From the NCBI GenBank assembly GCA_000165345.1, contig CM000433.1:992001-1056000 (forward strand): a DNA stretch of 64,000 nucleotides. The letters run 5' to 3'. The notes below the pieces were generated by a model. That model was given only the letters and a program-made list of their open reading frames with translations. It had not been told where the DNA came from and made no database searches. This document shows positions 588 to 42,615 of this stretch, piece after piece. Numbering within the stretch: the first letter of the stretch is position 1; each line of letters opens with the position of its first letter. A program made the translations under genes and the position numbers.

Positions 588-652
588 ATTTGGCGCCAAG
601 CCCTATTTCTTTTTTGTTTAAATGGCCATGCTATTAAACTCATTGGCGCCAC
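588..652. promoter_or_regulatory. Two TGGCGCCA E2F-like motifs (591-598, 644-651) upstream of the methyltransferase gene
   Basis: The motifs are seen directly. Confidence 0.4.
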
Positions 653-758
653 GTTAATTTTGGACAGGTTTAATTATATTATAATGTAAATTTAAAAGTA
701 TATATAAATTAAATTGTAATATTATAGGCAAACAAGTCATAAGGAAAGGTGTGATTAA

Positions 759-1442
759 ATGGAATCAGATAGTACTTACAAGTCTAAATTGATAAATAAG
801 AACTATTGGGAGGAGTTCTATGAAAATGAACTTGACTCTTATAATGATGTTGGCTATAGGGGTGAGGAGTGGTTTGAAGACTATATTGATGCAATAGTAG
901 ATTGGGTTATGGAAACAGGATGTGAGGTACAATCTGGGCGAGTTTTAGATATTGGATGCGGAAATGGACTATTTTTGATTGATTTAATACGTAATATTAA
1001 TTTTAGCAGTGCTGTTGGAATAGATTATATACCATCAGCTATAGAACTTGCAAAAAAAATTGTTCAAGAAGAAGAACTTTCCGACAAGATCTCATTATAT
1101 CCTGTAGATTTGGTATCAGGAAAGGATGTTTCAAAAAATAATGATAACGAACAGATTTTAGAATTGGGGAAATTTGAAGTTGTTGTTGATAAAGGTACTT
1201 ATGATATTTTTGTAATGAAGGATGAAAAACATATCTACAAAGACAGCGTCTCAAGATATCTAAAGAATGGAAGTATCTTATTCATTTCATCATGTAATTC
1301 AACTCCTGAAGAATTATGCAGTGTATTTGATGATCAAACAAATTTTGAAAAACTTTCTGAATTGCCACACAAATCTTATAGTTATAATGGAATTGAAGGA
1401 CAAGTTCTAGCTTCTGTAGCATTCAAATATATTAAGAATTAG
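759..1442 (+). CDS. SAM-dependent methyltransferase, METTL10/Efm4 (EEF1A-lysine methyltransferase)-like
   Basis: N-terminal YWEEFYENEL...GEEWFED motif is typical of the METTL10/Efm4 family. SAM-binding motif I is VLDIGCGNG. The ORF is complete at 227 aa. Confidence 0.6.
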   Translation: MESDSTYKSKLINKNYWEEFYENELDSYNDVGYRGEEWFEDYIDAIVDWVMETGCEVQSGRVLDIGCGNGLFLIDLIRNINFSSAVGIDYIPSAIELAKKIVQEEELSDKISLYPVDLVSGKDVSKNNDNEQILELGKFEVVVDKGTYDIFVMKDEKHIYKDSVSRYLKNGSILFISSCNSTPEELCSVFDDQTNFEKLSELPHKSYSYNGIEGQVLASVAFKYIKN

Positions 1443-1553
1443 GTAGCATTTATTAAAGGTTCTAGGCCAGAAAGTACTTTATCTACTTGATCAAAAAAAA
1501 ACAAAGTATCTATTTTCAAAGTTTTATACTGAGTTTGTATCAGCTATTATTAA

Positions 1554-1916
1554 TTAAAAGTTAAATTTATATATGCATTTTAATAAAATCTTTATATTAT
1601 TATTATAACTCACCTTAATCTCGCCCTTAATATCTATTATACTCTTTATTTGTCTTAATTTCTCATTGTTTAATTCCTTCCTCTCACTATTCTCATCCAA
1701 AAAAATACTATTATATTTTGATACATTATTTAAAAGTAATAAGGTTTCAGTCATACTATCAAACTCAAATGAATTTATTATTGATTCCTCATCTTCCAAA
1801 TGAGAAGTTATTTCTCTTTTATACTCTATATTGTTCTCACGACATAACCTTCTGAGATACTTAATTTCATCACACAACTCCCTAACCAATTCAATCTTCC
1901 TTGACATCCTCAACAA
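1554..1916 (-). CDS. Hypothetical small protein (120 aa)
   Basis: ORF only. No recognisable motif. It lies in the 710-bp spacer between two + strand genes. Confidence 0.25.
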   Translation of the reverse strand: MLRMSRKIELVRELCDEIKYLRRLCRENNIEYKREITSHLEDEESIINSFEFDSMTETLLLLNNVSKYNSIFLDENSERKELNNEKLRQIKSIIDIKGEIKVSYNNNIKILLKCIYKFNF

Positions 1917-2017
1917 AAACTAATTATCCACAACTTCTCAGCATAAGCTCAATCACAAATCATTATTTCCTATTATTATTTCATTTCCAATTTATCTCAA
2001 ATTAAATAACTCACATA

Positions 2018-2045
2018 CCGCGCCAAAAATATGGCGCCTACCGGC
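2018..2045. promoter_or_regulatory. CCGCGCCAAAAATATGGCGCCTACCGGC paired GC-box/E2F-like motifs upstream of the 2155 gene
   Basis: Seen about 110-140 bp upstream of the ATG. Confidence 0.4.
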
Positions 2046-2154
2046 ATTAACTTTTTCAATATAGTCAAAATTTACATTTGGTTGAAAAAATATTCATAAG
2101 AACGGCATAAGAAAGAGTAGTTTTCGTCAAGAAAAGCTTTCAAACTTTGGGGAA

Positions 2155-5100
2155 ATGCATACGAAAAGGAAAAGGAAGTCTGATACCGACCAGCCATCTG
2201 AACCTAATAAGTTCATGGCAGTTGATGGGCAAATTACTTCTAATGTCTTTAATGATTGGAATACTGAAATTTCTGTTATTACAGAAAGGTACCAGGATGA
2301 ACTCGCAACTAAAGTTAGTCGTTTGTATGAAGGAATAGGGAAAGATTTAGAGGCTACCATATTTGATTATTCTCAAAACGAGGATGAATATATATTAGGT
2401 TTATTGAAGAATACTGATATAGAAAATAACATTCAGAGTATAATAGACTGCCTTGAAAATTACAAAGAGTCCTTGAATTCAAAAAAGCGAAATCATGAAG
2501 GTGGCTCTATATTGGAGGATCTTAGAAAAAATCTTTTAAAGAGTTATTCCAGAATTGCATCTCACAAATTTGTTAAAGATGGTGAATTTGTTATTAAAGA
2601 TTGGACTTACTTCTTACCAATCTTACTTTCAAGCTCTGTTTCTGATATTGAGATCTCCATTATTCTAGACAAGCTTCCAAAAGTAATTAGGTTTCTTATT
2701 AAAACTATTAGAAAGTTTCAGTTTATAACTGGTAAATGCGTTTCTGTTGAAGCTATTGATACTATTAATATGTATAGGAACATTCTGAATGAGTTTACCA
2801 AGGCTAATAAAATGTATCATAATATTCAAAATATCTCAATTGAAAGATCAATCATAGAAATTCATGATCCACTTACCTTATATATTAAGAACATCATTAA
2901 TTACTCTGATAAAACTAAGTTATCTTCAAGCTTTATTCCATTAAGATTTGGTAAAGATCATACTGAAGGAGCAGGATCTTCTAAAACTAGTTTTAAATTA
3001 GATCTATTATCCAATTCTGGTGATATATTGTATATGATCTATGGAAATAACATCTCTTCTCTTGGTGTTTTTGGAACTAACTATTTAAGTAGAAAAATGA
3101 ATTTGGATAATTTATGGCAATTATCTATCTTCAAAAACCAATCTATTGGTCTTATACTTAGTAATCACAAAGAAAGGGATGATAAATCTCAAGACTTTGA
3201 AATTGAAAATCTTGATAGCTTTATAGGGAGTTTGGGATATGGTTATTCATCACTTGATTCTCTTAAGCCTATGAACCCAAGGCCAGAGCTAAACAAAAGA
3301 ATATCAAATAATATGCTAAGACTACAAATTAGCAAGAAGGTATATAAGAGATATAACAAAGAAGTGAACCCTAATACAAAAGCAATATCTCCTCTATCTC
3401 TTAATCCACTTATTCAGAAGTTTACTGGTTTCAATTCAGTAATTGAAGATGAACAAAAGTTTGGATTTAGAGATTATTCTAAATTTCCTTCGATTCCTAA
3501 CAAAGAACCAGAGAGAGCTGAGCTTATCTTTTCTAATGGAGCAAAATTACAAGAAGAAAAGGTTCCTCTTGGGTTCATATCTACAATAAGACAGCAGAAA
3601 TATGGTAAAAGAGAACTGGAGTTAGTTATTTTAGATACAAAAGAGTGTAGTAATTATATAGCAAATCAACATAAAGCTTCAAAAGCTAGAAATCTAAGAT
3701 TTGAAGAGTATGGATTGTTTTGGAAAACTATTCCAGAAAAGAATGGTAATTACAACTTTAAAATGATTCCATTACGTACTTGTAGTGCCTCAATTCATCA
3801 TTCAACCAAGTTTAAATCTCATCTATATTATTCCAGATTTCTATTGGAACAGCTTGTAAACTCAAATTGGAAGAAGAGGATTATTACAAAGAACAAGAAA
3901 TACTACAAGCTTTCTTCTTTAGTTAATGGAGGTTTTTTAAGTAAATCACAAAAGGAAACTGTTAATAAGATCACAAAAATTATATTAAATAATGGCTTAT
4001 GGGAGAATTATAGTGACATTGTACCAAAATTATTAACAGGTACCGATAAAAGAATTAGTGGCCACGAAATTGAGGAATGGGAGGATTTTGATGAAAATAA
4101 TGAATTTGATCAAGAAATGTATAGATTATCATCTGAATGTAGGAATAGTTCAAGTTCGAAATCATCAGAGTTTTATGGAAAGTATTTAAAATTAAGTTCA
4201 AAGAATTATAAGCTAGTTTCAAAAAGATGTCAAAAAATGTTGGCTAAATATATATTCAAAGAGTATCCAAGATTTTTGACCCAATATTTTAAGATTAGAA
4301 AGGAATGGAAGGAATATAATAGAAGCGAGACTCAAAAGAGAAATAAACAAAATGTTAATAATTCGTCTAGACTACAGTTGGATATTATTGGATATTCTGG
4401 AGAAAAGAACTTAAAAGCACAGTTCTCTAACTTTGAGAATCTAAAAATTAAGCATGAACCAAATGAATTAAAGACAGAAAATTCGAAAGATCCGCAAGTT
4501 CTTCATTTGATTAAACTAGAAAAGAAGCAAGAACAGAATACATTAACAGTTTTACCAAAGTTTGATTCCAAGTTACCATTGAATCAGATATATAAACTAG
4601 AGAATTTCATATCTATAGAGTTATTCAATAAAATTAAGATGGAATGGACAAAAAGTACAGTTAGCATATATAGTGGTCAATTAAGTCACTTTTCAAGGAT
4701 ATTATTAAATAATTTGAATAATTCTTCAATTTTGAACATAAAAGTTAAATCATTCTTTTTAAAGCTTATAATTTACATTGATTGGCTTATATATCTGATT
4801 AATCATTCAAATAAATCATTTGGTGGAGCTAGAGCAATTCAGAAATGTTTACAAGCATCTTTAGATTCTCAAACAAACAATCAGAATTCAAAATATCAGA
4901 GTAATTTAAGAATTCCAATAGAATTTTGCAATTGGATTATTGATTCATTTTTATCAAAATACCAGACAGAGAATCTTCAGACAAGATTCAGCTTTTCTAC
5001 AGCTGGAGAAAGTAAACTTTTTGCAACTATTCTATGGCTATCTAACTTTGTCAATGCTCATTCACACAATATTAATTACACAGATTACAACGGTGATAAC

Positions 5101-5325
5101 TTTGATATTCCTGTATTTCTTCCTTCTTCAGAGCCTTCTCCAATAGAATTTTCAGATCTTTTACTTCAAGATTTGAAGGATAAATTTACCAAAAAGTTTA
5201 GAAGTATTGCTCATGCAATGGGCTTCAGATCAACAGTTCCTCCCCCAAGAAGATTTAAATCAAAGAATTATATGATACCTCCAAACATTACCAGCGTAAT
5301 TTTGAACGAGTTCCCTAGACTATAA
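2155..5325 (+). CDS. Hypothetical protein (1056 aa) with a basic N-terminus (KRKRK)
   Basis: Long uninterrupted ORF. Codon composition is consistent with neighbouring genes. No domain is recognisable by eye. Confidence 0.7.
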   Translation: MHTKRKRKSDTDQPSEPNKFMAVDGQITSNVFNDWNTEISVITERYQDELATKVSRLYEGIGKDLEATIFDYSQNEDEYILGLLKNTDIENNIQSIIDCLENYKESLNSKKRNHEGGSILEDLRKNLLKSYSRIASHKFVKDGEFVIKDWTYFLPILLSSSVSDIEISIILDKLPKVIRFLIKTIRKFQFITGKCVSVEAIDTINMYRNILNEFTKANKMYHNIQNISIERSIIEIHDPLTLYIKNIINYSDKTKLSSSFIPLRFGKDHTEGAGSSKTSFKLDLLSNSGDILYMIYGNNISSLGVFGTNYLSRKMNLDNLWQLSIFKNQSIGLILSNHKERDDKSQDFEIENLDSFIGSLGYGYSSLDSLKPMNPRPELNKRISNNMLRLQISKKVYKRYNKEVNPNTKAISPLSLNPLIQKFTGFNSVIEDEQKFGFRDYSKFPSIPNKEPERAELIFSNGAKLQEEKVPLGFISTIRQQKYGKRELELVILDTKECSNYIANQHKASKARNLRFEEYGLFWKTIPEKNGNYNFKMIPLRTCSASIHHSTKFKSHLYYSRFLLEQLVNSNWKKRIITKNKKYYKLSSLVNGGFLSKSQKETVNKITKIILNNGLWENYSDIVPKLLTGTDKRISGHEIEEWEDFDENNEFDQEMYRLSSECRNSSSSKSSEFYGKYLKLSSKNYKLVSKRCQKMLAKYIFKEYPRFLTQYFKIRKEWKEYNRSETQKRNKQNVNNSSRLQLDIIGYSGEKNLKAQFSNFENLKIKHEPNELKTENSKDPQVLHLIKLEKKQEQNTLTVLPKFDSKLPLNQIYKLENFISIELFNKIKMEWTKSTVSIYSGQLSHFSRILLNNLNNSSILNIKVKSFFLKLIIYIDWLIYLINHSNKSFGGARAIQKCLQASLDSQTNNQNSKYQSNLRIPIEFCNWIIDSFLSKYQTENLQTRFSFSTAGESKLFATILWLSNFVNAHSHNINYTDYNGDNFDIPVFLPSSEPSPIEFSDLLLQDLKDKFTKKFRSIAHAMGFRSTVPPPRRFKSKNYMIPPNITSVILNEFPRL

Positions 5326-5866
5326 GGTATTTAATAGAAAATGTACTGTTTCTTAAGAAAGAAAAACATCAAATACACTAAAATTTTCTCTAGTAACTTG
5401 ATATATTCAATCAAGTTAGTTATATCTATATTAAGGACTATGACCTCTAATTTATAGCATTTTTAAAAGTGATGTGATTTGAATAATAGAATAAATAATT
5501 TGAGAACTGAGTTATAAAATAATTATGATTAAGATTAGAAATAGAATAAAAATGCAATTGAATATTAGAAATATACAACATTTATAATAAATTTTATACA
5601 AGGCTTTTACTAGTTAATAAAATTTAAATAAAATGAATATTCAAATTTTTATACCGTTTTTACCATTTTAAGAACCACTATACATTTTCAAATCATGTCG
5701 AATTTCCACAGTTTATTGAAATAATCTGATTTTTTTTGTCATGACTTTTATGTCTTGTTGCTTTATACACAAAAATGTATCCATATTTACAATTTATACT
5801 TAATACTTTTCTTCTTTTTATTAATCTAATTAATTAGTGGCCGATACCTTTTAAAATGAACAGAAA

Positions 5867-5890
5867 GTTCCCGCCCAAAGTTCCCGCTCG
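5867..5890. promoter_or_regulatory. Tandem E2F-like sites TTCCCGCCCAAAGTTCCCGCTCG upstream of the 5988 gene
   Basis: Two TTCCCGC cores about 100 bp upstream of the ATG. Confidence 0.4.
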
Positions 5891-5987
5891 AAATAATAAT
5901 AAATTAATTAAGAGTAAAAATGTAAAATTCACATAGTATTAAAAAAAGGCAAAAAGGGATACGAGATGAACTAAGAAGAGCTTTGAA

Positions 5988-8900
5988 ATGAATGTGACTT
6001 TAGGGTCCATACTGTTCCCTGAACGTCGAAAGGTAGTGGTAGATACTAGAAAGGGGCTTCATAACAAGAGAAAGAAGCAGGTAAATGCTCAGAAAAACCA
6101 GGAACAAACTTCCAAGCAATTTACTACGCGGCTTCTTTTGGATGACGAAACAATTGCTCCAAATGATTTTTTGACCCCATTTCCAAGTGATGATGTAAGA
6201 AACACAGAGCAATTTTGGGAATACTTAGAGCGTGTGTTTTATCCTGTAGATGAGAGATGGATTAGTATATTGGATCTTTCAGCAAGGCCACGGAATTTGG
6301 AGCCAAGTGAAACATGTATAGGGTTACATTTTGCTTATAGGTGGGCATTGGTAGATTTATTTGATACTAGCGAACTTTTTAAATTGGTTGGGAATAGAAA
6401 TAAGATTTTTAAGAATACCTTAGAGAAATGTAAGAATTTATCATCTGATACTAAAGCAAATAGTAATAGCGGTAGTAATAGATCAGGCGGAAAAGACCAA
6501 GTTTTGGATAAATCAGAGGATTGCCAACCAGATAATTTGGAAAGTTCAGATTTAGTAGAAGAACAGAAGGTTTTAAGTTATTTGGAGTTTCTTGATCTTC
6601 CAACACTTGAGCTTATAGGAATAGACCCAGCGGTATTGGGAGGAGTGAATACAAATGGGGACAATTTGGTAAAACAATCAGATAGTACAAATCAGAAAAA
6701 GGGGGCTTTAAATAATCCATATTTTGAGGAATGGAAATTTCTCTACAAAAGATTATGTTTTATTGAGAAGGAGGTTGACTCTATGCTTTTAAAGCTAACA
6801 GATAGTGTTAGTGAGAACATCCATAAGGACAACTCCAGAAAGTTACTTCAAAGACATCAAAAAAAGAAATGTAGACAATTCCTATTAAAAGTGATGCATT
6901 ATCATAGTATGAGACAATTTGTGGATTCTCTGGAGGAGGTTTTATACTTTGATGAGAATACTGGACAGTATTTGACAACTTGGGATGATGGTGAGGCTGT
7001 TAGAGCCGCATGGATGAGTCAGGATCAGCTTTTACAGCTTCTTTTATTTAGGCCAAACTCTACAGAAAGTAAATATTCTGTTTCAATCCCAAGTGAGTAC
7101 ATTCCTTATGCAAGATCTTTAGACACTCATTGGCTTAAATACTTATTAGACTCTGGTTTAACAATGATTAGCGATGATTCAAATAATCCTCAAGATGACG
7201 ATAGGCTTGGGGATACTTTGAATCTAGATACACCTTCTAAGCCTAAAGATGGTTGTATTGAACTTTCAAGGCATCCTCTTTGTCATTATTGTAGAAGAAG
7301 TTGCAAGAGGCTTAACTATTCTAGGTGCCCATCAAAACTTAAACCTTTAAATCTTGGAATTAATCCTTCAGGTCTTAACCAAACTACACAAGCTCAAAAT
7401 CCAAACTCTAATTCTATTTTAAATAATAATAACTCTTTAAAGCTACCAGGAACTTCAACATCTACTAGCGCATCCAATATTTACTATTCAAGATCTCTTA
7501 TTCCATGGAGAGTCCCAAAGTCTCAAAGTAATATAGAAAATAGTGACCATTCTGAGCCAATTCATATAAATAGCAATAATTATAACCAAAATCAATTCCA
7601 ATTTGGAAGTAAATCAGGAAAATCTGTTAAGCCCAACAATAGATCGTCAATTGGAGGGAATTCTTGTGGTTCTGGAGCATCTTACTTACTTAATGTGAAT
7701 AAATCTCATGTATGTAATATATGCACTGATTTTGAATCAAGTCTGAATGAATCTGTTTCTGCTCCTCAGGAAGAAATCTTAGTTAGTAGAGCCTACTCTC
7801 CCAATAATTGTTGGAGAATGTACTGTTCAGAATGCATTATGCATAATTTTTCCTCAATAATTAAGCAAAAGTATTCAAATGGAGTGGTTTTGAGGTATTA
7901 TTGCCCTTTTTGTAATGGTGCTTGTAATTGTGAGAGGTGCCTCAGAAATCAACAAATTCGAAAAATTAAAAACTACTTGAAGTCACGTTTCTGTGGATAT
8001 ACATTTCAATGTTCGATATCCAGCTGTGTAATTCAAAACGAACTCAGCTGGTATGACTTTCTCAAAGATTTTGGCGGAGACTCATTATTTCCGAATATTA
8101 ATGATAATAGCACTTATAAGGAAAACAATAATTTATTAGGAAATAATGAAACGGCATTAGTGAACGATTTAGGTGAAATTGATGAATCTATGGTTAATCC
8201 CAGCAACTTAGCAGTGGTTTCTTATATTAACAATGCAAACAGGAGGCTTTCCGTCGCAGAAAACACACACCTAGGCTTTATTTGGCTTCAAGCTAATAAT
8301 ATTCCATTCCAAAAGCCTACTCCTTCCTCATCAGGAGTGAATGCAAATATCAATGACTCAAACTCCAAAAAAACAACCACACTATCCAGTGCTCTATCAG
8401 GAAGCTGTGCATCCGACCCCACTAAACTAGTATCTAAGAATAAGTCGAGAAGTAATAGGTCCTCAATTAACGGAACTCAAAAGAACAGAAGAAATTCAAA
8501 TGTCCAAAGCAACTTTGAAGATGGTGATTCTGGTCATTCAAATAATAATAAATCTCAACAACCTACACAATCTGCTCCATCTAATTCCTCCATGTTTTCA
8601 AGTATGGGCAGGCCCGCCTTTAACATTAAAGTAGGAGGCGCCCAAAATATACCGCCCTCAATTCATATACCTCGCGAAGTATTAAATGAGCCAACGCATG
8701 CATCAGGAGCTTCGGTACTTTGGAGTTTAAGGTCGATTTTAATCAATAATGTGAATAAGTACCATAAGGAATGCTTGAATAATTTAGAGCGTTGGGAGAG
8801 TATCCAGGAATTATATAATAGGAAGAGGGTAGAACTGGAGAGTTACTTTGAGGAGCAGCTTTCGAAGCTAAACTTAATGGACGACTGGATTCGTTCAATA

Positions 8901-10082
8901 TCATTCACAGAAACTAATAAGAGGTTTATAATGAGGAAGATGCCATTATTGTGTTGGGCTGCAGACATCCCATCCGCAAAAGCTTTTAATTTTGACGACT
9001 ACCCTCAGTTGTTGCCAAACAATAACGTTGTGGAGATGATTGAACATATTCAGAATTTTGTAAACAATGGTATCATTTCGGAAGATCTACCAACTCATCA
9101 AATTTTGGGTCTTAGTGAGATTAGTGAAGGTGATGGGATTATTGGAGTATCACAAAAAACTACTCCAAGTCTTAAACTAATTGACAAGTTACCAGGAATG
9201 GTTACTAAAAACTCTCCTAGTTCAGTTATGGAGTTTCTAATGAATTCAATCTCTGAAATACAAAATATTGTAGTAAAGACAAATCATAACACTTCCAAAG
9301 ATGAGTCATCAAAGGCAAATAAGATCCAAAGAAGCTCAAAAAAAGACAAATCTAACTCTAAAAATTCTGTTCAAAATAAGCTTCCGAACTGTGATGTTGT
9401 AAACCCAGATGAAGTAAAGATTTCAAATTGTAATAATGATTTGATTTCCTCCTCCTCTTCTATTGCTGAGGCTGATGGAAATCATTTTTACAGTAACTCA
9501 CCTATTAATGCTGAATTTTTATCTAAAAACCACGGTATGCTTGAAACAGCCACTTCCACTGGTCAAAACGATCCTTCTTTAATTACCAGGTCATCAGTTG
9601 GAGATGGGATCCAAAACCCTGATAGTAGTCACTTGCCTAACTTCAGCCTTGTTGAATGTCAAAAATCCTCTAATAATAATCCCTTTTTCCATGGGGGTAG
9701 CAACTCATATATGTTAAATGAAGGCTCTATCGATCCATTCCAGTCTTATTCTAGTAAGACTATCCCAAGCCAGGATCCTGGAGCTGTTGATGGTGCCCAA
9801 AATAAATCTAGGAAAAGAAAGTCCTCTTTGGAACTAAATTCTGTAGAAATATTAACTCCTGAACGCAAAAGGGAGCTTGCCTTGAAAAGAAAACGCGACA
9901 GGGAAACTATCCGAAGAGCAATGAAAAAAAACAGTCATCTTTCCTCATCAAGTCCCACTTCTCCTAATGCTATTGGAGCAATGGGTTTCAATGGCATGGA
10001 GGAAATTAATAGTTTGAATGGTGACGGAACAACTTTTAGTATTAGCAGCAATGGCAGCAGTTATGGCTCTCCCCAACTGTAA
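5988..10082 (+). CDS. Hypothetical S/N-rich probable nuclear protein (1364 aa) with a Cys-rich zinc-finger-like module
   Basis: Long ORF. A Cys cluster at about aa 420-660 (HPLCHYCRRSCKRL...CNICTD...CSECIMHNF...YYCPFCNGACNCERCLRNQ) has a CPxCxxxCNCxxC ending. That ending is reminiscent of the CDCA7-type 4CXXC_R1 zinc finger. There is a basic KRK-rich C-terminal region. Confidence 0.65.
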   Translation: MNVTLGSILFPERRKVVVDTRKGLHNKRKKQVNAQKNQEQTSKQFTTRLLLDDETIAPNDFLTPFPSDDVRNTEQFWEYLERVFYPVDERWISILDLSARPRNLEPSETCIGLHFAYRWALVDLFDTSELFKLVGNRNKIFKNTLEKCKNLSSDTKANSNSGSNRSGGKDQVLDKSEDCQPDNLESSDLVEEQKVLSYLEFLDLPTLELIGIDPAVLGGVNTNGDNLVKQSDSTNQKKGALNNPYFEEWKFLYKRLCFIEKEVDSMLLKLTDSVSENIHKDNSRKLLQRHQKKKCRQFLLKVMHYHSMRQFVDSLEEVLYFDENTGQYLTTWDDGEAVRAAWMSQDQLLQLLLFRPNSTESKYSVSIPSEYIPYARSLDTHWLKYLLDSGLTMISDDSNNPQDDDRLGDTLNLDTPSKPKDGCIELSRHPLCHYCRRSCKRLNYSRCPSKLKPLNLGINPSGLNQTTQAQNPNSNSILNNNNSLKLPGTSTSTSASNIYYSRSLIPWRVPKSQSNIENSDHSEPIHINSNNYNQNQFQFGSKSGKSVKPNNRSSIGGNSCGSGASYLLNVNKSHVCNICTDFESSLNESVSAPQEEILVSRAYSPNNCWRMYCSECIMHNFSSIIKQKYSNGVVLRYYCPFCNGACNCERCLRNQQIRKIKNYLKSRFCGYTFQCSISSCVIQNELSWYDFLKDFGGDSLFPNINDNSTYKENNNLLGNNETALVNDLGEIDESMVNPSNLAVVSYINNANRRLSVAENTHLGFIWLQANNIPFQKPTPSSSGVNANINDSNSKKTTTLSSALSGSCASDPTKLVSKNKSRSNRSSINGTQKNRRNSNVQSNFEDGDSGHSNNNKSQQPTQSAPSNSSMFSSMGRPAFNIKVGGAQNIPPSIHIPREVLNEPTHASGASVLWSLRSILINNVNKYHKECLNNLERWESIQELYNRKRVELESYFEEQLSKLNLMDDWIRSISFTETNKRFIMRKMPLLCWAADIPSAKAFNFDDYPQLLPNNNVVEMIEHIQNFVNNGIISEDLPTHQILGLSEISEGDGIIGVSQKTTPSLKLIDKLPGMVTKNSPSSVMEFLMNSISEIQNIVVKTNHNTSKDESSKANKIQRSSKKDKSNSKNSVQNKLPNCDVVNPDEVKISNCNNDLISSSSSIAEADGNHFYSNSPINAEFLSKNHGMLETATSTGQNDPSLITRSSVGDGIQNPDSSHLPNFSLVECQKSSNNNPFFHGGSNSYMLNEGSIDPFQSYSSKTIPSQDPGAVDGAQNKSRKRKSSLELNSVEILTPERKRELALKRKRDRETIRRAMKKNSHLSSSSPTSPNAIGAMGFNGMEEINSLNGDGTTFSISSNGSSYGSPQL

Positions 10083-10405: not shown

Positions 10406-10416
10406 TTTTGGCGCCT
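10406..10416. promoter_or_regulatory. TTTTGGCGCC motif upstream of the S9 peptidase gene
   Basis: About 130 bp upstream of the ATG. Confidence 0.35.
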
Positions 10417-13801: not shown

Positions 13802-14544
13802 TTAAACTTTAAGAATATTTATTATATTTTTTTTCTTCTCTTTAAATTGATACAAAAGTCAATAAAGTGATAAAATGGAAGAATATATCAAGAATGGAAA
13901 TATCGTAATTTTAAGAAGCGCATAAAAGTCATTATTTGAATACATTTTTTTTGCATTTCATGAATTTTTAACAATTTTCCCTCAATAACAATTTGAGTAT
14001 ATGCAGTTGATTAATTTTCGATTACGAAAAAATACGAGTTAATAAACGGAGGGAAAAGAAAAGTAAAAATGGGAATAATTGAAAATTTGTCCCACAAAGT
14101 TTAACATGTACGAATAATCCACATGAAAATTACTTAATAAATTATATGAATTAAAAACTTTTAGTAGAAATAAAATTTATTATAAAAGTTGAAAATGTGT
14201 TTAATAAATATTATAGAAAGAATTAACAAGATTTCTTGAGAAGCTTTAATAAGAAGTGAAATAGGGAATTATGTTTTAGGGGGTTTGATATATTTATTTA
14301 TTTTAATGATAAGATTTAGTAGAAAAATGAGAAAAAAAAAATCAAATATGTAGAAGCAACAATTATTAATATTTGGATGAGGTGATGATTGGGGGAAAAA
14401 AATCATCTAATTTACAAACTCATATTGATGAATCTTTTAATTAATCATTATTAGTATTTTTTAGAAGTGCATTTATTAAATTATTTGCATACGTGTATTA
14501 GCGTTATTAAGTACCGGCAAGTGGGGCTTCCACATAAGTGCATG

Positions 14545-14558
14545 TTTTGGGCGCCAAA
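14545..14558. promoter_or_regulatory. TTTTGGGCGCCAAA motif flanked by TGCATGT elements upstream of the kinase-like gene
   Basis: About 580 bp upstream of the ATG. Confidence 0.35.
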
Positions 14559-15133
14559 TGCATGTAAGTACATTTTGACGGTGCAATAGAAAATAGAATC
14601 AAAATAGGTTCCACTCAAATTCGAGATTTTTTTTAATTTATAAACAAAGGTGGGAAATAAAAGAAGTCATGTATAAGGTTATATATATTTACAGGTGAAA
14701 TATAATAAATTATTAATACATTAGGTAATGCTAGAAAAAAGTATTAAAAAATTGTAAAATGCCAAAAAAAATTGGTGGAGAGACTGAAATATTAAGGCTA
14801 AAAGAAAGGAGAGTAATATAAATAATAAATAAAAAAGATTAAAAACAATAATAGAAGTAATAATAATATTTGAAGAAAAAATTTGGTTGAGGAATATAAT
14901 TAAAAGAAAGAAAGTGATTGGAAGGAGATAATCTCTAATTAATTTTGGAGATTATTATTTTAATTATTACTATTGTTATTTATTTTCTTCCAAGCTTGTT
15001 AACAAAAAAAGTTAATATTAAATTGGAATGGAAATTAGGATTAATAAAATATTAGAACAGAGAAGAAAGAATAATGTAATAATAGGAAATAAAAGTAAGA
15101 AAGTTTTATCAATTACTAGAAAGGATTAAAAGA

Positions 15134-17524: not shown

Positions 17525-18187
17525 AAATAATCACTCACAATTATCATCAAATTTTGTGTTTTGGTCATCTATTAATTATTTCTAAATTAATTTTAATGGG
17601 TAACTAAATGTAAAAATAAGACTAATCTAATGCAGCCAATCAAGAAATATTCATTCGTGCTTAAATTTTATATTGGTCAATCTTAAAAATGTGATAATTT
17701 TACTATTGTTAATGAAATATTAATTTATAATTATAGAGATTTTCATTATGGCTTTATATACTAATGCTTCAAGTAAGATATTAATTATGTAAATGCATGT
17801 AGAGCAGCAATTCATATGGAAATTTCATGTTTTATTGAAAATAATGTTTTTGAGAAAAAGTATTAATGCAGTTTTAAGCTTCTTCATAATGGCTATGGTT
17901 AGAAATTATTTTATTATTCAAATTAGAGATGGCGGGTTCATTATAAATAATACCGGGTACCTAATATTCTGAATCATTTTAATAAATATAACTAATGCTT
18001 TCCTTTTTATAAAAAAAAGAAGAGAAAGAATTTAATATTAAGTAAAATAATTTAAAAGTACAATATAAATAAAAAAGTTGAATTTGAATTTGACTTGAAA
18101 TAAATAAAAGTAAGAGCTTAGAGGATCATTTGGAAAAGTGCATTGATTTTTAAGAGAATTACTAATAGACTGGGTAATAAGTAAATA

Positions 18188-20276: not shown

Positions 20277-21236
20277 TTAATCAGAATCTGAAAAGATAAC
20301 ATGACTATTTGATGGCTTAATCTTTGTCTTTGTTTCTGATTCAGATATTGGGTAGTTGTTAGAGTTTGATTTGTCTTTGTATTTATCTTTGTATTTATCT
20401 TTGTCTTTCTTAACATTTATCTTATTAGAGCTTTTCTTTGTATTACTACTGTTTCTTGTTTGATTGCCTCCAATCATATATTCAATCTTTTTTATTGGTC
20501 TTTTTAAAGTATCATGTTCCTTATTCAGATTCTGATCGCATTCTAAATCATCACTATCATCCTGAGCAAGAAATGAATCTTTCAATGACAAATTATTAAT
20601 TTCTGAAGTCTTAATCTTCTTTCTTCTAAGCTCTTCCTTAAGTTCTTGAACATCATTAATATATTCTTCTCTTCTTTTAATCATCTCAGAATCTAATTCT
20701 GTATTTGAAAATAAAGGAATATATTTCCTTTCTTTAAAAAATGGAAGTAATCTTATGTAATCTTCATATCTTTTATAAACTAATATTTTTGATTTAATTT
20801 TCAAAATTTTATCTCTAACTGTATCATTTTCTGAAAAACTTAAATCCAAACATTCTTTAGGATTTCCCTCTGCATTATCAATATCACTATTATTTTCATC
20901 TTGTTGTATTTCTTCTTCAATTTCATTATTTCTTAATATTTCTACCAAGTCCTTTTGGAGTTGATTAATTTTCCTTTTAACTTTAACAAGTTCAACAAAT
21001 CTCATAGTCTTTTGCTTATTCTTCTTATATTGAAGATATTTATTAAGCTTCTTCTTATATGAGCTATTATTCTTGGAGATTGTATCTTTTAAAACTTTTG
21101 CTTCCTCTTCTAATTCAATCTTCTTTTCTTCAGAAATTTGAAATTTCTTATTTTCCAATAATCTTTTAATATCTCTGATTCTTTGACCTGCACTTCTGGC
21201 CTTTTTAGCTTTATTTTCTTTATTAGATTCACTCAT
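20277..21236 (-). CDS. K/E-rich coiled-coil protein, rRNA-processing Efg1-like
   Basis: N-terminus KAKKARSAGQRIRDIKRLLENKK...KKIELEEEAKVLKD followed by KTMRFVELVKVKRKINQLQK resembles Efg1 family conserved blocks (RIRDLERLL ... KKYHMVRFFERQKA). Confidence 0.5.
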   Translation of the reverse strand: MSESNKENKAKKARSAGQRIRDIKRLLENKKFQISEEKKIELEEEAKVLKDTISKNNSSYKKKLNKYLQYKKNKQKTMRFVELVKVKRKINQLQKDLVEILRNNEIEEEIQQDENNSDIDNAEGNPKECLDLSFSENDTVRDKILKIKSKILVYKRYEDYIRLLPFFKERKYIPLFSNTELDSEMIKRREEYINDVQELKEELRRKKIKTSEINNLSLKDSFLAQDDSDDLECDQNLNKEHDTLKRPIKKIEYMIGGNQTRNSSNTKKSSNKINVKKDKDKYKDKYKDKSNSNNYPISESETKTKIKPSNSHVIFSDSD

Positions 21237-21615
21237 TTTTTTTTTTGTAATTCTTATGAATTTTATAGAATTTCACTCTGTTAATAAATCTCAAAAAGAT
21301 ATTTTTATTATTTAGAAAAACATAAAATAAATTTATCCTATATTCCACTTGGTTTATTATTCAAGCTTAAAGTAACCTCTAATAAGCCAATTATATTGTA
21401 TTGTATTATCTTTTATATAGGTAATGTGAAAGATTAATAATATTGACTTTTTTGAAATAAAATTAAAATATATATTTCCAAGTTAAACTCCAGCTACCAA
21501 GTCCTCCAACTTCTAATCTTCTAAAAGTTTCTCTCTCAAAATTTGAAAATCTTTTTTTTCTTTTCTTCCTTTTTAGTTTATTTTTGACATTTTAATTATA
21601 AATAATTTCCCAGAA

Positions 21616-21626
21616 GCCCGCCCAAA
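21616..21626. promoter_or_regulatory. GCCCGCCCAAA E2F-like motif in the divergent Efg1-like / Trm11 promoter
   Basis: About 90 bp upstream of the Trm11 ATG. Confidence 0.35.
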
Positions 21627-21714
21627 CTGAAAAATGCTATACCGGTGACAACTAATAATTTTTTTTTTGTGGAAAACAGATCAAAATTGACCAAAAATTT
21701 AGGAAAAATAAAAT

Positions 21715-23241
21715 TTGAAAAAAATAAAAGTCTGTATGCCGTTATATTTGGTTTGGTTTGTTTTACACCCTGATTATCATGAATTTAGACTTCAGGAATT
21801 GGAATCTTTAGCTGAATGTTTTGGAGTTGAAAAAAATAAGCTTTGGGTCACTAATTTACCAGAATACGTTTCATGGCATCATCGTAAATATGATAGACCT
21901 TTAGCAAATGATCATAGTAGTTCTTTTGCATGGGTATGTTTACCAAATGAAGATATTGCTTTACGTATCTTGCAAAGAAGTGTTCTAGTAAGAGGTTTTA
22001 TGCAAGTTTGGGCAAGTGGAACAGATCATGAACAAGTTGAGAAAGTTCTTAAAGAAGATGAATATGTTAAAAAAGAATTTCTTAGAAAGTATATACATGA
22101 TGATGTTGATTTTTCTTGGAAAGTTAAAAGTATTGGAAAAAAGTTATCTAGACCTGAACAAGTTTCAAGAATGAATCATTATAGTTTTCTATTTAAAGGT
22201 ACTGAGACTGTTAATTTAAAAGATCCTTCTTTAAGTCTGGGAATTTTTGAAGATTGGAGATCTATTCATAATCAAGAAAAACTTCCAATAGAAGGAATTT
22301 CTAAGGAGCAAATTTCTAAGCTTCAATCTACTATGCTTAAAAGGGTTTATCTTGGAAGAATAATAGAGAATCAAAGCTCTACTGATCTTGGAGATAAATC
22401 TCTATGGTGGTTGAAGTATACTTTAAATAAGAGACCAATATTAGGTCCAACAACTATGGATAATGAATTAGCCTTTATAATGTGTAATATTGCTCAAGTT
22501 AAAAAAAATGATATAGTTTTTGATCCATTTTGTGGAACTGGTGGTATCCTTATTTCAGCTTCTCATTTTGGAGCTACATGTTTTGGATCTGATCTTGATC
22601 TTAGAGTAATTAATGGATGGTTTTGTTCTTATGTTAATCCACATATGATTAAAGATCAATCTATTAAAGAAGACCATTCAAAATCTATTTATTCTAATTT
22701 TGACTATTATAAGCTTGAAAGACCTGGTATTATTAGAATGGATATTTCTCAGAGTTCAATTAGATCCTCATGGATAGATGCCATTGTTTGCGATCCTCCT
22801 TATGGAATTAGAGCAACTTCTAGAACCACTAATTCTAATTCAAATCAACCTACTAGTGTTTATTCAGGTAATAACTATATCCATACATTTATTCAGGATT
22901 ACAATTATAGGAAATCTTCACCATCATCATCATCATCTTCTATATCAAATACTCATCCATCTACAGGAAAGAATACTTTTGGGTCTCATCAGCCAATTGA
23001 TGAAATGATCTTTGACCTATTATCATTTGCATCTAAGACTTTGGTTATTCATGGACATCTTGTCTTTCTTTTACCTCTTATGGTATCAGATGCCAATATT
23101 GTAATTCCTAATCTTATTGAAAATTGGAAGCATATCTTTTCTATTGACTTTCCTTATATGCAAACATTAGGAGGAGGTCTTGGTAGATTGTTAGTACATA
23201 TGAAACTAATCAACAAAAATGAAGAATTATTTGGGATCTAA
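21715..23241 (+). CDS. TRMT11: tRNA (guanine10-N2)-methyltransferase Trm11
   Basis: Trm11-type N-terminus (LVWFVLHPDYHEFRLQELESLAECFGV). SAM motif FDPFCGTGGILISASHFGATCFGSDLD. Catalytic DPPYG. A Ser-rich insertion follows the DPPY motif. Confidence 0.85.
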   Translation: MKKIKVCMPLYLVWFVLHPDYHEFRLQELESLAECFGVEKNKLWVTNLPEYVSWHHRKYDRPLANDHSSSFAWVCLPNEDIALRILQRSVLVRGFMQVWASGTDHEQVEKVLKEDEYVKKEFLRKYIHDDVDFSWKVKSIGKKLSRPEQVSRMNHYSFLFKGTETVNLKDPSLSLGIFEDWRSIHNQEKLPIEGISKEQISKLQSTMLKRVYLGRIIENQSSTDLGDKSLWWLKYTLNKRPILGPTTMDNELAFIMCNIAQVKKNDIVFDPFCGTGGILISASHFGATCFGSDLDLRVINGWFCSYVNPHMIKDQSIKEDHSKSIYSNFDYYKLERPGIIRMDISQSSIRSSWIDAIVCDPPYGIRATSRTTNSNSNQPTSVYSGNNYIHTFIQDYNYRKSSPSSSSSSISNTHPSTGKNTFGSHQPIDEMIFDLLSFASKTLVIHGHLVFLLPLMVSDANIVIPNLIENWKHIFSIDFPYMQTLGGGLGRLLVHMKLINKNEELFGI

Positions 23242-23519
23242 TATTAATTATTTTGTCTAAAAGAATATCTAATTAGGTAGATATAAGTTAGCAAAGGAAA
23301 AGGAACAAAATAAGATGAATAAAGAAAAGAATTTGGAATATATTAGTAGCTGCTTTTTTTCCTCTTCTCTTCTTAGTGAATAATGGAATATTTGCAAACA
23401 AATATCTCCTTTATTAGCATCTCATAAATTATGATTATATAAGTAAACATTGGAATTTTCTTTAAACTCATTTATAAATACCTTTTAATATATACATATA
23501 TAAACACAACTTACTTATA

Positions 23520-26500
23520 TTACCTTGTTTCATTAAAAGTTGCATTCTTTAAAATAGATTGTAGTTTCTGAGTTTGTATAGGTTTCAAGGATTCTGATAT
23601 TAGAATATCATTTGAAAGATTATGAGAACTATTCATTGATGATGATGATGATTGGGACTCATTAAATATTTGTACATGAGAATTTTTGTTATTGTTCTGA
23701 CTACTCTTGTAGTCATTATCATGATCACTTAAACGTGACAAATATTTATTATTGGAAGAATTGTTATTAACCAAAGTCCAGAACAAATTTGTTGAAGATG
23801 GACACATACAAGTATTTAAATTCTGAGATAAGTTACTTAAGTTCTTTTTACCAAAAGAAATAGCAACTTCATTACTAACTTGTTTTAAACAGTATAATGA
23901 TGAAAATGAACTTGTAATTTGGTTAGCTCCCAAAACTTGTTTATTTGGATCATTTGAATAGGAAATAATACTTTGAACAGTCTTTGAAATCTGTGATAAA
24001 GTAGAAACTGGATTACTTTTTTGATTATCATTATTTATTTGACTATCTTTATCAGTCTTAAGGAACATCTTTTCAATAGATTTTTGAATATCATTAATAT
24101 CAGTAGTTTCATATTCATCAGTAAATTCTTTATTAGTAGATAAAGAATCATCAATAACCATTTCAGTATTTTCTAATGATTGTTTATTAATATCTTGTAG
24201 AACTTGTGAAATAATTTCACCAGATGTATCCAAAGCTCGTATTTCTTGAATATAAATGTCATAACTGGATAACAAAAGCACTAAATATATAGAGATTTTT
24301 GTGTTTTCAACTTTAAATTGAATAATAGCATCCTTAACAGATGTTTCTTCAAATAAATCAATCTCAATATCTTCCAAACATTTAATTTGTTCAAGTTTAG
24401 ATTTGGATTTAGTACTTTTTACAAATTGATAAAGAGAAATAAGTGCTTTTTGTTTTGTATTTTTAACAATAGCAAATTGAAATGGGATTTCTTCTTTTAA
24501 GAATTGGGTAAAATGACCATAATCTTGTATATTAATAAGCTTGGAATCAGAATTAAGTTGAATATTCTCTTGATGAATTAACTCCATGGAAGTAATATTC
24601 CATATAAAAAGCTTTCCAGAAGAAGGAGAAATTCCTAATAGATAATATTCATGATTATGCATAACAATAAGCATTTGAGTAATTTGAGCTCCTTTAACAG
24701 ATAAATAACCAATATCACTTTCAAGTAGAATTGAATATTGTTTATTCCAATTATATACTATAATACCTTTAGATGAAGCCAAGAAAAGCTTATTAAATGC
24801 ATGACTAAAACAAGTAGAATAAATTTCAATTTCAGATTCTGGATGAATAATTGATGAATTGACCCATTCTTTAATTTGATTTTTATAAATCCAACATTTA
24901 ATTTCACGTTTACAAGTAATTGTTATAAAACATGTATTATTATCTTTATTAATATCATGATTATCATTTTCATATAATATATGATCAGATTCTGCTTCTT
25001 CTATTGAAACAACTTGGTCAATATGAGCAATAGGATAGTTAGATACTAATTCAAATTGTGTTTTATCTTTAGAAAGAAGAATTTTCCAAAATTTAAGATT
25101 ATATGCTCTCTTTTCATCATTAAAATGATCAAATTTTTGACTTTCAATAGTAATAGCAGATTTTGAATTCTTTGAATAATATGCATCAATTAATACAACT
25201 CTAGTAATATCATCTTGTACAAGCTTTGATGAAGAAATTCCATCTCCAACTTTTGAAACATAACTTTCTTCAGGCTTACAAAGAATACTAGAATGCCATA
25301 CATCTTTAATAAGATCATGAATATGCAACTTGAATGGATGAGAAATAATGGATACTAAAAGCTTTGTAGGATTCAAGAATTGAGATCCTAGAATTTTGAT
25401 TTTAGGATAATCCATAATACTACCTTTAATTGCATTGAATGGAGTAGAAATACCATATATAGTATTTAAGATTTTATTATGTACTAGATCAATAATTTTA
25501 ATACTGTTATCAGAGCATACAATAGCTGCTATTAATGAAGGTAAAGTATTAGAACCAGATACTTGAGTATAATCATGATTTTGAGTATCCATACAAACTT
25601 TTTCTTTTCTAAATGATGTAATATTATATATAGGAGCTCCCAATCTAGGAATAAATTGTCTAGTACCATTATTATTTGGATTTTTGTAATGATTTCTGGT
25701 ATGAATCAGATAAGAATCTGAAGAGAAAGTTTGCCTCCATAATACTAGAACAGCTTCTTCTCCACCTGATAATATAGTATCTGTACCAGGTATAATATTT
25801 AAAGAATTTAATTCATGTGAATGCCAGTGAGATATTGATGTTTTAACATTATATTTATAGATCATTTTTTCAATATCAGAATTTTCAGAAATGGAAGGAG
25901 CATTTTTCCACATTTGTATACCTTCTTTTGATGAAGAAGGAGGAATAAACCAATAAGTTAACCTACCATAAGCATCACCAGTAGCAACAAATTGTTGATC
26001 TTCAGAAAGTGTAAGCGATAGAATATATTCGGAATGTCTAAAACGAATAATTTTATCAGGGTATTGAGTATTCCAAATAATTAAGATATTTTTCCATATA
26101 AAACAGAATAAAGACTCATCCGAAGATACTTGGAAATTTAAAGCTCCATATGAGAAGTTAATAATCTTTTTGAGAGATTTTTGAATAAATTTGGAATGAT
26201 TAGATTTTTGATTAACAGAAGTATTAAATTTTGAAATTATATCAGAAATGGGAATTTTATATAAGGAAACATTAGTATCAATCAAAGTATCTTGATCTTT
26301 TGCTTCACTTATGATAAAATATATATTGTTTTTTGCAACTTTCAAATCAATAATACATCGACCAATTTCAATCTCTATTACAGACTTCTTTTCTTTATGA
26401 TTTAAGATATCATTTAAATGAAAAATTCGTATTAAACCACTAACAGTTGTAGTAACAATAAATTCCTCATTTTGATCAGACTTTATCACACCAAGACCTG

Positions 26501-26717
26501 TGATAATTTCTTTTGAAGCAGAAAATTGAGATTTAGACTCTCCATTTCCCAAAGTATCATATACATAAATTTCGTTATCTCTTCCTTTTGGGATTAATAA
26601 TAAATTCCCATTATTGCAAAACACTGGTGGTACTTTTAGAGAAAAGCATCCTCCTTTGTAACCTTTATTCATCTCTTCTCCTTTTCCATAAAAGACTAAT
26701 AATACCAATCTATACAA
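23520..26717 (-). CDS. WD40-repeat protein, possibly a nucleolar small-subunit-processome-type beta-propeller protein
   Basis: Multiple WD-like repeats are present (e.g. ...ATGDAYGRLTYW, ...LSGGEEAVLVLW). 1065 aa. The true start is probably the internal Met of MNKGYKGG at about 26672. Confidence 0.7.
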   Translation of the reverse strand: MYRLVLLVFYGKGEEMNKGYKGGCFSLKVPPVFCNNGNLLLIPKGRDNEIYVYDTLGNGESKSQFSASKEIITGLGVIKSDQNEEFIVTTTVSGLIRIFHLNDILNHKEKKSVIEIEIGRCIIDLKVAKNNIYFIISEAKDQDTLIDTNVSLYKIPISDIISKFNTSVNQKSNHSKFIQKSLKKIINFSYGALNFQVSSDESLFCFIWKNILIIWNTQYPDKIIRFRHSEYILSLTLSEDQQFVATGDAYGRLTYWFIPPSSSKEGIQMWKNAPSISENSDIEKMIYKYNVKTSISHWHSHELNSLNIIPGTDTILSGGEEAVLVLWRQTFSSDSYLIHTRNHYKNPNNNGTRQFIPRLGAPIYNITSFRKEKVCMDTQNHDYTQVSGSNTLPSLIAAIVCSDNSIKIIDLVHNKILNTIYGISTPFNAIKGSIMDYPKIKILGSQFLNPTKLLVSIISHPFKLHIHDLIKDVWHSSILCKPEESYVSKVGDGISSSKLVQDDITRVVLIDAYYSKNSKSAITIESQKFDHFNDEKRAYNLKFWKILLSKDKTQFELVSNYPIAHIDQVVSIEEAESDHILYENDNHDINKDNNTCFITITCKREIKCWIYKNQIKEWVNSSIIHPESEIEIYSTCFSHAFNKLFLASSKGIIVYNWNKQYSILLESDIGYLSVKGAQITQMLIVMHNHEYYLLGISPSSGKLFIWNITSMELIHQENIQLNSDSKLINIQDYGHFTQFLKEEIPFQFAIVKNTKQKALISLYQFVKSTKSKSKLEQIKCLEDIEIDLFEETSVKDAIIQFKVENTKISIYLVLLLSSYDIYIQEIRALDTSGEIISQVLQDINKQSLENTEMVIDDSLSTNKEFTDEYETTDINDIQKSIEKMFLKTDKDSQINNDNQKSNPVSTLSQISKTVQSIISYSNDPNKQVLGANQITSSFSSLYCLKQVSNEVAISFGKKNLSNLSQNLNTCMCPSSTNLFWTLVNNNSSNNKYLSRLSDHDNDYKSSQNNNKNSHVQIFNESQSSSSSMNSSHNLSNDILISESLKPIQTQKLQSILKNATFNETR

Positions 26718-26846
26718 GAGAATAGAAGAGTAATACTATCTCTATTAAGTATATATATATGTATATATATTAATGTATGTTTTCTCTTGCCTTGTTACCT
26801 TTTCTTGGTCTGTCTAACTTTGACTCCTTTTTAGGCACTTTCAAGA

Positions 26847-26877
26847 GGCGCCATAGCTGCGCCAAATTTTGCCCGCC
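26847..26877. promoter_or_regulatory. Cluster of three E2F-like motifs (GGCGCCA, TGCGCCAAA, TTTTGCCCGCC) abutting the TK stop codon, about 130-160 bp upstream of the WD40 gene start
   Basis: The motifs are seen directly. GGCGCC / TTTCCCGCC-type E2F/DP sites are a recognised over-represented upstream motif in Cryptosporidium. Confidence 0.45.
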
Positions 26878-27465
26878 TTAGAAATTGTATTCTTCACAAT
26901 TAATTATATGATGTTTTCTGCATACAGAAGTATAAATAGAATTGTCACCAATAAGAATTTGTTCGCCAGAAAAAACAGGTTCTCCATTGCTATTTAATCT
27001 GATAGTCATGGTAGCTTTTTTGCCACAGCGACAAATAGTTTTGATTTCAGTAAGTTTATCAGCCCATGCTAATAAGTATTTACTTCCTTCAAATAAATTT
27101 CCCTTAAAGTCTGTTCTCAAACCATAGCATAGTACTGGAATATTTAGCTTATCAACAACAATGCATAATTCTCTAACTTGGAATTTCGTTAGGAATTGGC
27201 TTTCATCAACTAGAACACAATCAATTTTTTCCTTATTATTTTCTTGATTAATAATATCAAGTAGTTTTAAATCAGGAGTGAATGTGTGTGCTTTTTCTGA
27301 GAGACCAATTCTAGAGCAAATTGAGCCTTCTTCAAATCGGCAATCTTTGCTAATTGTAAAGAGAATGGTTTTCATTCCTCTTTCTTGGTAGTTGAATGAG
27401 GATTGAAGAAGAACCGTTGATTTTCCAGCATTCATTGCTGAATAGTAAAAGTATAATTTTGCCAT
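26878..27465 (-). CDS. TK: Thymidine kinase (TK1/bacterial type)
   Basis: P-loop MNAGKST. Zinc-ribbon cysteines CRCGKKA...CRKHH. Compact 195 aa type-II thymidine kinase. In Cryptosporidium this enzyme is known to be of bacterial origin. Confidence 0.9.
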
Positions 27466-27694
27466 TTTATTAAAGTATTTCCAATCTTATTTGCAGTAGG
27501 TATGAGTGATATTATTGCTTTAAAGTATTTATTAGGTAAATTGTTGAATTCTTTGTGTTAGATGGTTTAAAATTTTGTTTTGAGTGATTAATAAAAATAA
27601 ATTTAATTTATTTTTACTTTATGAGTAGTTATTTAATCTCAATTTAGCCTCAAATTTATTACTTGAGAAAAGTGGTTACCTATATATAGATATT

Positions 27695-27710
27695 AAAAGG
27701 CGCCAAAAGG
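27695..27710. promoter_or_regulatory. E2F-like palindromic motif AAAAGGCGCCAAAAGG in the divergent TK / 27827-gene promoter
   Basis: It lies in the 361-bp divergent intergenic region and is consistent with cell-cycle control of TK. Confidence 0.45.
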
Positions 27711-42613: not shown

Positions 42614-42615
42614 AT

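Follow-up and report, generated by a model that had tools for sequence, protein, structure and literature searches.

The upstream regions of Cryptosporidium parvum genes are known for a GC-rich word that resembles the site at which the E2F/DP transcription factors bind. This E2F-like word was first noticed by Bankier et al. 2003, and was later listed in two forms, Motif 3 (DTTGSCGCCH) and Motif 4 (TTTGGCGGGAAV), which showed over-representation upstream in 163 of 200 expression clusters and made it C. parvum's most abundant putative binding site (Oberstaller, Joseph and Kissinger 2013, PMC3734150). E2F was also the top motif in the peaks of the assay for transposase-accessible chromatin with sequencing (ATAC-seq) in sporozoites, and E2F motifs were found between the genes of polycistronic transcripts as well (Xiao et al. 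2025, bioRxiv 10.1101/2025.01.17.633476). According to the literature, C. parvum has two or three genes for E2F and two for DP, no apicomplexan genus other than Cryptosporidium is known to keep E2F/DP, and Retinoblastoma-family partners are absent from Cryptosporidium. The present analysis concerns the E2F-like words GGCGCC and GGCGGG/CCCGCC in one stretch of the C. parvum genome, a window of 64,000 nucleotides (assembly GCA_000165345.1, contig CM000433.1, positions 992,001 to 1,056,000), whose own numbering is used for all coordinates.

In animals and plants, the E2F/DP site reportedly reads TTTSSCGC with a symmetric SGCGCS core, as is said of the E2F4-DP2-DNA structure that Zheng and co-workers described in 1999. 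Thymidine kinase (TK) is a classic E2F target in mammals. The Cryptosporidium motif shared with that site the consensus and the T-rich flank, the position on the promoter side of genes, the frequent pairing and an occurrence in the TK promoter, but it was located upstream of most genes instead of a cell-cycle regulon, it is a putative site here, and the Retinoblastoma-family partners are missing. The AP2_1 motif TGCATGCA, an ApiAP2 site, is likewise a GC-containing palindrome that is conspicuous in the AT-rich intergenic DNA of Cryptosporidium, and it co-occurred with the E2F-like word at 14539-14564; it differs in its sequence, in its protein family and in that its binding has been shown by microarray.

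Compared with Motif 3 and Motif 4, the words in the window had no essential difference: the organism, both word forms, the upstream location and the near-ubiquity were all the same, and the sites were instances of the published motif. The original prediction for this stretch, made from the letters alone, had recognized this match with the E2F/DP-type motif and had also been right in naming Cryptosporidium; its reading was correct but already known, because the motif had been published (Oberstaller 2013; Xiao et al. 2025). Our analysis adds a distance of 100-170 bp from the start codon, arrays with a core spacing of 11-14 bp, the conservation of individual sites in five species and the interchange of both forms at one orthologous site. 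Taken together with the literature, the results indicate that GGCGCC and GGCGGG/CCCGCC are, with a probability of about 0.85, an E2F/DP-bound promoter element present on nearly all housekeeping promoters and often bidirectional.

Enrichment and position of the E2F-like words

The window was split by a gene map built from open reading frames (ORFs) and Pfam matches, each compartment was simulated with its own first-order Markov composition, and SGCGCS, GGCGGG or CCCGCC were counted as E2F-like hexamers. The intergenic DNA of 1-28000 (5.9 kb) contained 13 such hexamers, against 0.33 expected, and the coding DNA of the same part (22 kb) contained 2, against 0.63 expected, which corresponded to a motif density about 24-fold greater in intergenic than in coding DNA. 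An artefact of base composition was ruled out by the simulations per compartment. GGCGCC alone was found eight times in the window, seven of them intergenic, where dinucleotide shuffles gave 0.19. When all 6-mers in the intergenic DNA of 1-28000 were ranked without bias, TGGCGC, GGCGCC, TTGGCG and GGCGGG took places 1 to 4, and TTGGCGCC and TTTGGCGGG/TTCCCGCC were enriched 20- to 200-fold in intergenic DNA.

The alignment of 16 intergenic sites gave the consensus T-T-T-S-S-C-G-S-S, which is the E2F consensus. Core positions 3 and 4 were invariably C and G, and T was found at each of the three 5' flank positions in 12-13 of the 16 sites, a flank signal that is somewhat inflated because the orientation of each site was picked for the best match. 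Six sites matched TTTSSCGC at all eight positions and seven sites at 7 of 8. The site words usually had a T run in front of the core; they fit TTTSSCGC with a symmetric SGCGCS or GGCGGG core and also the consensus of the C. parvum upstream Motif 3 and Motif 4, and they were enriched upstream of genes.

The words were restricted to the promoter side of genes. In 1-28000, every one of the ten intergenic regions with a gene 5' end carried a site (GGCGCC or GGCGGG/CCCGCC), whereas none of the four convergent (3'-3') regions did (Fisher P = 0.001). The motif was present at each of the positions named in the original prediction (591, 644, 2019-2038, 5868-5887, 10406, 14545, 21616, 26847-26877 and 27699), and its claims that the words stand upstream of genes and that several are duplicated or paired were borne out. 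The outcome that it had named as refuting, an upstream frequency no greater than in coding or random intergenic sequence of like composition, was not observed. Four promoter regions had two or three sites, with a core spacing of 11-14 bp in three arrays and of 53 bp in the fourth pair, and divergent gene pairs often shared one site or array. At the median, the facing ATG was 130 bp from the site (interquartile range, 118-149 bp), and this distance was independent of the length of the intergenic region (160 to 712 bp). Since the ATG distance was constant across intergenic lengths, the sites are positioned relative to the downstream gene and not to the upstream stop codon.

Conservation of the individual sites

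The TK locus was compared with Cryptosporidium sp. chipmunk genotype I, C. ubiquitum, C. felis and C. bovis, and the locus of the gene for a RING-domain protein was compared with C. ubiquitum; synteny was intact in all of these comparisons. In pairwise alignments of 16 orthologous intergenic regions of C. parvum and C. ubiquitum the overall identity was 0.60, and the E2F cores were identical at 75 of 78 positions (96%). An E2F-like hexamer was found at the aligned place in C. ubiquitum for 11 of 13 sites, and 10 of the 13 cores were conserved without any change, compared with a background rate of 0.119 among other 6-mers (P = 1e-7), a conservation beyond the neutral background of the kind left by functional constraint. 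The footprints were also seen in chipmunk genotype I, C. felis and C. bovis, and the words recurred in orthologous intergenic regions at near-equal distances from the ATG. These alignments argue that the positions of the words are kept by purifying selection across Cryptosporidium species.

The first site, CCCGCCAAA (reverse TTTGGCGGG; 18-26, minus strand), was 47 bp upstream of the frataxin ATG (65), and its counterpart in C. ubiquitum, TTCCCGCCAAAA, was at 48 bp. Two plus-strand sites preceded the ATG of a methyltransferase gene (759): TTTGGCGCCAA at 589-599 (with TTGGCGCC at 592), 167 bp from the ATG and 6 bp past the frataxin stop codon, and TTGGCGCCA at 643-651 (with TTGGCGCC at 645), the second of the pair, at 114 bp. 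In C. ubiquitum they corresponded to TTGGCGCT at 154 bp and TTGGCGCCAA at 103 bp. The word CGCGCCAAAAATATGGCGCC at 2019-2038 was a pair of CGCGCCAAAAA and GGCGCC with cores 14 bp apart, followed immediately by TACCGG (the whole element at 2019-2044). This pair was located in the divergent promoter of a 117-residue gene (minus) and orf1056 (plus), 112-136 bp from both ATGs, and both cores were identical in C. ubiquitum, at 112/135 and 125/122 bp. TTCCCGCCCAAAGTTCCCGC at 5868-5887 (5868-5888, plus) was a tandem pair of the GGCGGG type, TTCCCGCCCAAAG-TTCCCGCT, with a spacing of 13 bp, and was 107-120 bp upstream of the ATG of the RING-domain gene (5988); C. ubiquitum had TTCCCGCC twice, at 122 and 109 bp, where the two C. 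parvum distances were 120 and 107 bp. TTTTGGCGCC (10406-10415, plus; core 10410) was 132-134 bp upstream of the S9 peptidase ATG (10542), and TTGGCGCC was at 137 bp in C. ubiquitum.

The site upstream of the kinase gene was a composite, TGCATG-TTTTGGGCGCCAAA-TGCATG (14539-14564), in which the E2F-like palindrome (14545; core 14550) stood between two TGCATG words of the AP2_1 type. It preceded the kinase ATG (15134) by 584 bp, and the ATG of orf161 was 749 bp away. In C. ubiquitum TTGGCGCC was found at 571 bp, the E2F part and a flanking CATG were retained, and TACCGG was 36 bp off in both species. A hidden small gene that would explain the distance of 584 bp was looked for, and no convincing ORF was found in the region, nor any such gene in the C. 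parvum or C. ubiquitum annotations. The site of the ArgRS gene consisted of GGCGGG (ATGGCGGG) with TACCGGGTA 15 bp downstream (17931-17956, plus), 257 bp upstream of the ATG (18188). Chipmunk genotype I and C. ubiquitum have kept it, at 257 and 227-232 bp. CCCGCCCAAA (reverse TTTGGGCGGG), with TACCGGTG 18 bp away (21617-21647, minus), was in the divergent promoter of an Efg1-like gene (minus) and a UPF0020 methyltransferase gene (plus, ATG 21715), at 98 bp from the latter in C. parvum and 112 bp in C. ubiquitum, and all five species examined had GGCGGG in this intergenic region.

Two further elements flanked the TK gene. The triple arrangement GGCGCC/GCGCCAAA/CCCGCC (26847-26877), with cores 11 and 14 bp apart, abutted the TK stop codon 130-155 bp upstream of the ATG of a WDR75-like gene (26717, minus) and was kept in chipmunk genotype I, C. 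ubiquitum and C. felis. AAAAGGCGCCAAAA (27695-27708; 27699) was in the 361-bp divergent promoter (27466-27826) of TK, at 234 bp, and of a gene of about 1585 residues, at 128 bp; chipmunk genotype I and C. ubiquitum had TTTTTGGCGGGC at 121-122 bp from the latter, the C. ubiquitum distance being 122 bp. At this site GGCGCC of C. parvum aligned with GGCGGG of chipmunk genotype I and C. ubiquitum. This swap at one orthologous site indicates that GGCGCC and GGCGGG are variants of one element.

The intergenic sites at 18, 17931 and 57726 had been missed in the original prediction, as had a cluster in the coding region of the RING-domain gene (5988-10082), where CCCGCC, GGCGCC and CCGCCC were found within 45 bp (8613-8657). 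This cluster was weakly conserved, with one CCCGCC near the position in C. ubiquitum. Its function is uncertain; it is possibly due to chance or coding constraint, and it could be an internal or antisense promoter.

A different word was observed beside the E2F-like sites. All five intergenic CCGG in the window were part of TACCGG (full palindrome TACCGGTA), at 2039, 14512, 17951, 21640 and 32700. All five were on the strand of the downstream gene, four of them were 0-38 bp from an E2F-like site, and chipmunk genotype I and C. ubiquitum have retained TACCGG at the corresponding places. The enrichment within the window alone was weak (4 against 0.29 expected, uncorrected for multiple testing). 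TACCGG was not among the 25 published C. parvum upstream motifs, and a literature search for it in Cryptosporidium returned only primers for the polymerase chain reaction. TACCGG(TA) may be a second promoter element that cooperates with the E2F site.

Candidate binding proteins and competing explanations

The enrichment, the promoter-side restriction, the positional constraint and the conservation come from the window, the presence of E2F/DP genes and the dominance of the motif in ATAC-seq peaks come from the literature, and from these we infer that E2F/DP is the binding protein. Winged-helix heterodimers of E2F and DP would bind the symmetric SGCGCS core, the bound complex would mark or open the promoter, and the transcription of most housekeeping genes would be driven as a result. 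Several points weigh against this proposal. The literature search returned no result for Cryptosporidium E2F/DP from chromatin immunoprecipitation (ChIP), cleavage under targets and release using nuclease (CUT&RUN), protein-binding microarray or electrophoretic mobility shift assay (EMSA), and reviews describe functional validation of these proteins as lacking. Positions were measured from the ATG and not from transcription start sites, two sites, that of the kinase gene (584 bp) and that of ArgRS (257 bp), were outside the usual distance range, and the sample was small, with ten promoter regions against five in the distal part of the window. The motif was upstream of almost every gene in the region and therefore cannot alone explain stage-specific expression; it could be a general promoter or chromatin mark instead of a classical cell-cycle E2F switch.

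The lack of a binding result for the Cryptosporidium proteins, the occurrence upstream of most genes instead of a cell-cycle subset and the absence of Retinoblastoma-type partners would also suit a promoter element bound by another factor, such as an ApiAP2 protein, a zinc-finger protein or another GC-box binder, in which case the likeness to E2F would be a coincidence; several sites indeed read ATGGCGSS, past the canonical E2F consensus. This explanation is unlikely, since the T-T-T-S-S-C-G-S-S consensus with its symmetric core fits E2F/DP sites in each of the two published forms, C. parvum AP2 domains on protein-binding microarrays gave TGCAT, CACACA and G-box motifs and not the E2F-like motif, and the one apicomplexan genus that has the proteins also has the motif. 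Far less probable still is a role of the words at gene 3' ends or boundaries, as a terminator, a polyadenylation signal or an insulator. Such a role is suggested by the short tandem regions, in which the site is right behind the upstream stop codon (6 bp after frataxin for 592, and abutting TK for 26872), and by the E2F motifs reported between genes in polycistronic transcripts. The four convergent regions, however, had no site despite two 3' ends each, in the long tandem regions (459-712 bp) the site kept to 107-136 bp before the downstream ATG, with the upstream stop codon hundreds of bp away, and the distance to the ATG was conserved between species while that to the stop codon was not. The tests on convergent regions and distances thus ruled out the terminator or boundary reading, and an E2F/DP-bound promoter element remained the preferred explanation.

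The distal block and the origin of the window

In a direct comparison, the AsnA translation of the window was identical to that of C. parvum Iowa II (EAK87293.1) over 343 of 343 residues, including an aberrant C-terminus that is missing from modern assemblies; in the 2004 gene model, AsnA starts at a non-ATG codon and is frameshifted at its C-terminus. The window is therefore the chromosome 5 reference of Iowa II from 2004. This origin accounts for the scattered N bases and for the scaffold gap of 100 N at 52313-52412. The first 52 kb corresponded to about 721-774 kb of C. parvum IOWA-ATCC CP044418.1 and was 100% identical to it in the stretches compared, namely the TK locus (6.6 kb) and the RING-gene locus, and the TK protein has an unchanged copy in C. 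parvum. The gene map was compact and eukaryotic with few introns, and included frataxin, methyltransferases, an S9 peptidase, a kinase, ArgRS, TK, an adhesin with TSP1 domains, VPS13 (about 5400 residues), GMP synthase and AsnA. The ORF-based models were confirmed against three annotated C. parvum assemblies at the RING-domain gene (1364 residues), and the small gene of 117 residues (1554-1907, minus) was added from the annotated assemblies.

Gene models were broken in low-quality stretches of the 2004 reference at 31119-31157, 42613-42618, 50793-50881, 60453-60881 and 60933-60980. VPS13 was divided by such stretches into three ORFs, the ORFs of 1096 and 448 residues are one gene of about 1585 residues in other species, and the C-terminus of AsnA is frameshifted when compared with modern assemblies. 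The TK protein (26878-27465, minus) was 63-65% identical to enzymes of gamma-proteobacteria (Serratia, Tatumella, Leclercia) and equally close to these and to its C. felis orthologue; it is a known horizontal transfer from bacteria, now behind a eukaryotic E2F-type promoter.

Beyond the gap, the window contained a hyper-AT subtelomeric block (52413-64000) with a 262-residue gene, GMP synthase, a 272-residue gene, AsnA and a 141-residue gene. Intergenic GC was 9-13%, intergenic regions were up to 3.4 kb long, and (AAT)n arrays were present. Two long (AAT)n/(TAT)n arrays were located at 59060-59954, in the 3.4-kb intergenic region downstream of AsnA, and a 102-bp tandem repeat (2.9 copies, 95% matches) was located at 63006-63301 inside the 141-residue ORF. 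The block was 99% identical to IOWA-ATCC CP044422.1, 15-35 kb from the chromosome end, which ruled out an origin in another Cryptosporidium species or a contaminant, as had been suspected from a GC content of 11-20%. The alignment ended exactly at 52413, the edge of the gap. Just past the gap position, CP044422.1 carried a duplicate of window positions 53247-54522 with 83% identity, a paralogue of the 262-residue gene. Baptista et al. 2022 state that the old reference put this subtelomeric region on Chr 5 wrongly and with no support in the HAPPY map; they assign it to Chr 1 and describe near-copies on Chr 7 and Chr 8, and modern assemblies place the region on these three chromosomes. Because the block matches the subtelomere of another chromosome, the alignment ends at the gap and the region has been relocated by Baptista et al. 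2022, the discontinuity that the original prediction had noticed between the two parts of the window is an assembly join, in which the gap links internal sequence of chromosome 5 to a subtelomeric block of another chromosome. It reflects a mis-join already known for the 2004 reference, not the biology of chromosome 5.

The original prediction had seen no such motif beyond 52.4 kb. GGCGCC and TTCCCGCC were indeed absent from the distal block, but one CCCGCC was present at 57726, so that the block was depleted and not empty. This site, CCCGCCAT (57726-57733, plus), was the only E2F-like word in its intergenic DNA, 242 bp upstream of the 272-residue gene (56666-57484, minus), and the word was present in three C. 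parvum assemblies and absent in C. hominis. GGCGCC was already missing from 27.7 kb onward, and no E2F-like site was found in 28-52 kb either, as this part is largely taken up by two giant genes and has only two or three promoter regions. In a small sample, one of five promoter regions of the block had a site, against ten of ten in the first 28 kb (Fisher P = 0.004). In the intergenic DNA of 28-64 kb, AP2_1-type words were the top non-repeat 6-mers: TGCATGCA was found at 32643-32650 upstream of the TSP1-domain adhesin gene, where the E2F word was absent, and GCATGCATGC at 35501-35510 in the convergent region between TSP1 and VPS13.

The scarcity in the block might in part reflect poor sequence or chance in a small sample and have no biological meaning. 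The many N bases at 60453-60881, the mere five or so promoter regions, the single CCCGCC and the equally site-free chromosome 5 sequence at 28-52 kb are in line with this. We consider it rather doubtful. Four assemblies of the 21-kb region, three finished ones of C. parvum and one of C. hominis, contained no GGCGCC and at most one GGCGGG and one AAAGCGCCA, so that sequence quality is not the cause, the contrast between the promoters gave P = 0.004, and the block differed from the first part in all else too, from its intergenic GC and spacing to its arrays. For footprinting of the block, C. hominis was too close (80-94% identity). A contig with AsnA, P0002, was 81% identical. As a tentative proposal, put forward jointly with that of TACCGG as a second promoter element, the duplicated hyper-AT block (GMP synthase, AsnA, TrpB) might be a promoter compartment largely without E2F-type elements.

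It is established in the literature that among the promoter signals of Cryptosporidium the E2F-type motif dominates, and that all other apicomplexans have lost E2F/DP; the window is a local illustration of it, to which the present analysis supplies site-level conservation data and TACCGG as a candidate companion element. If the proposal for the hyper-AT block is true, the horizontally acquired, copy-number-variable subtelomeric genes would be under a different transcriptional control.

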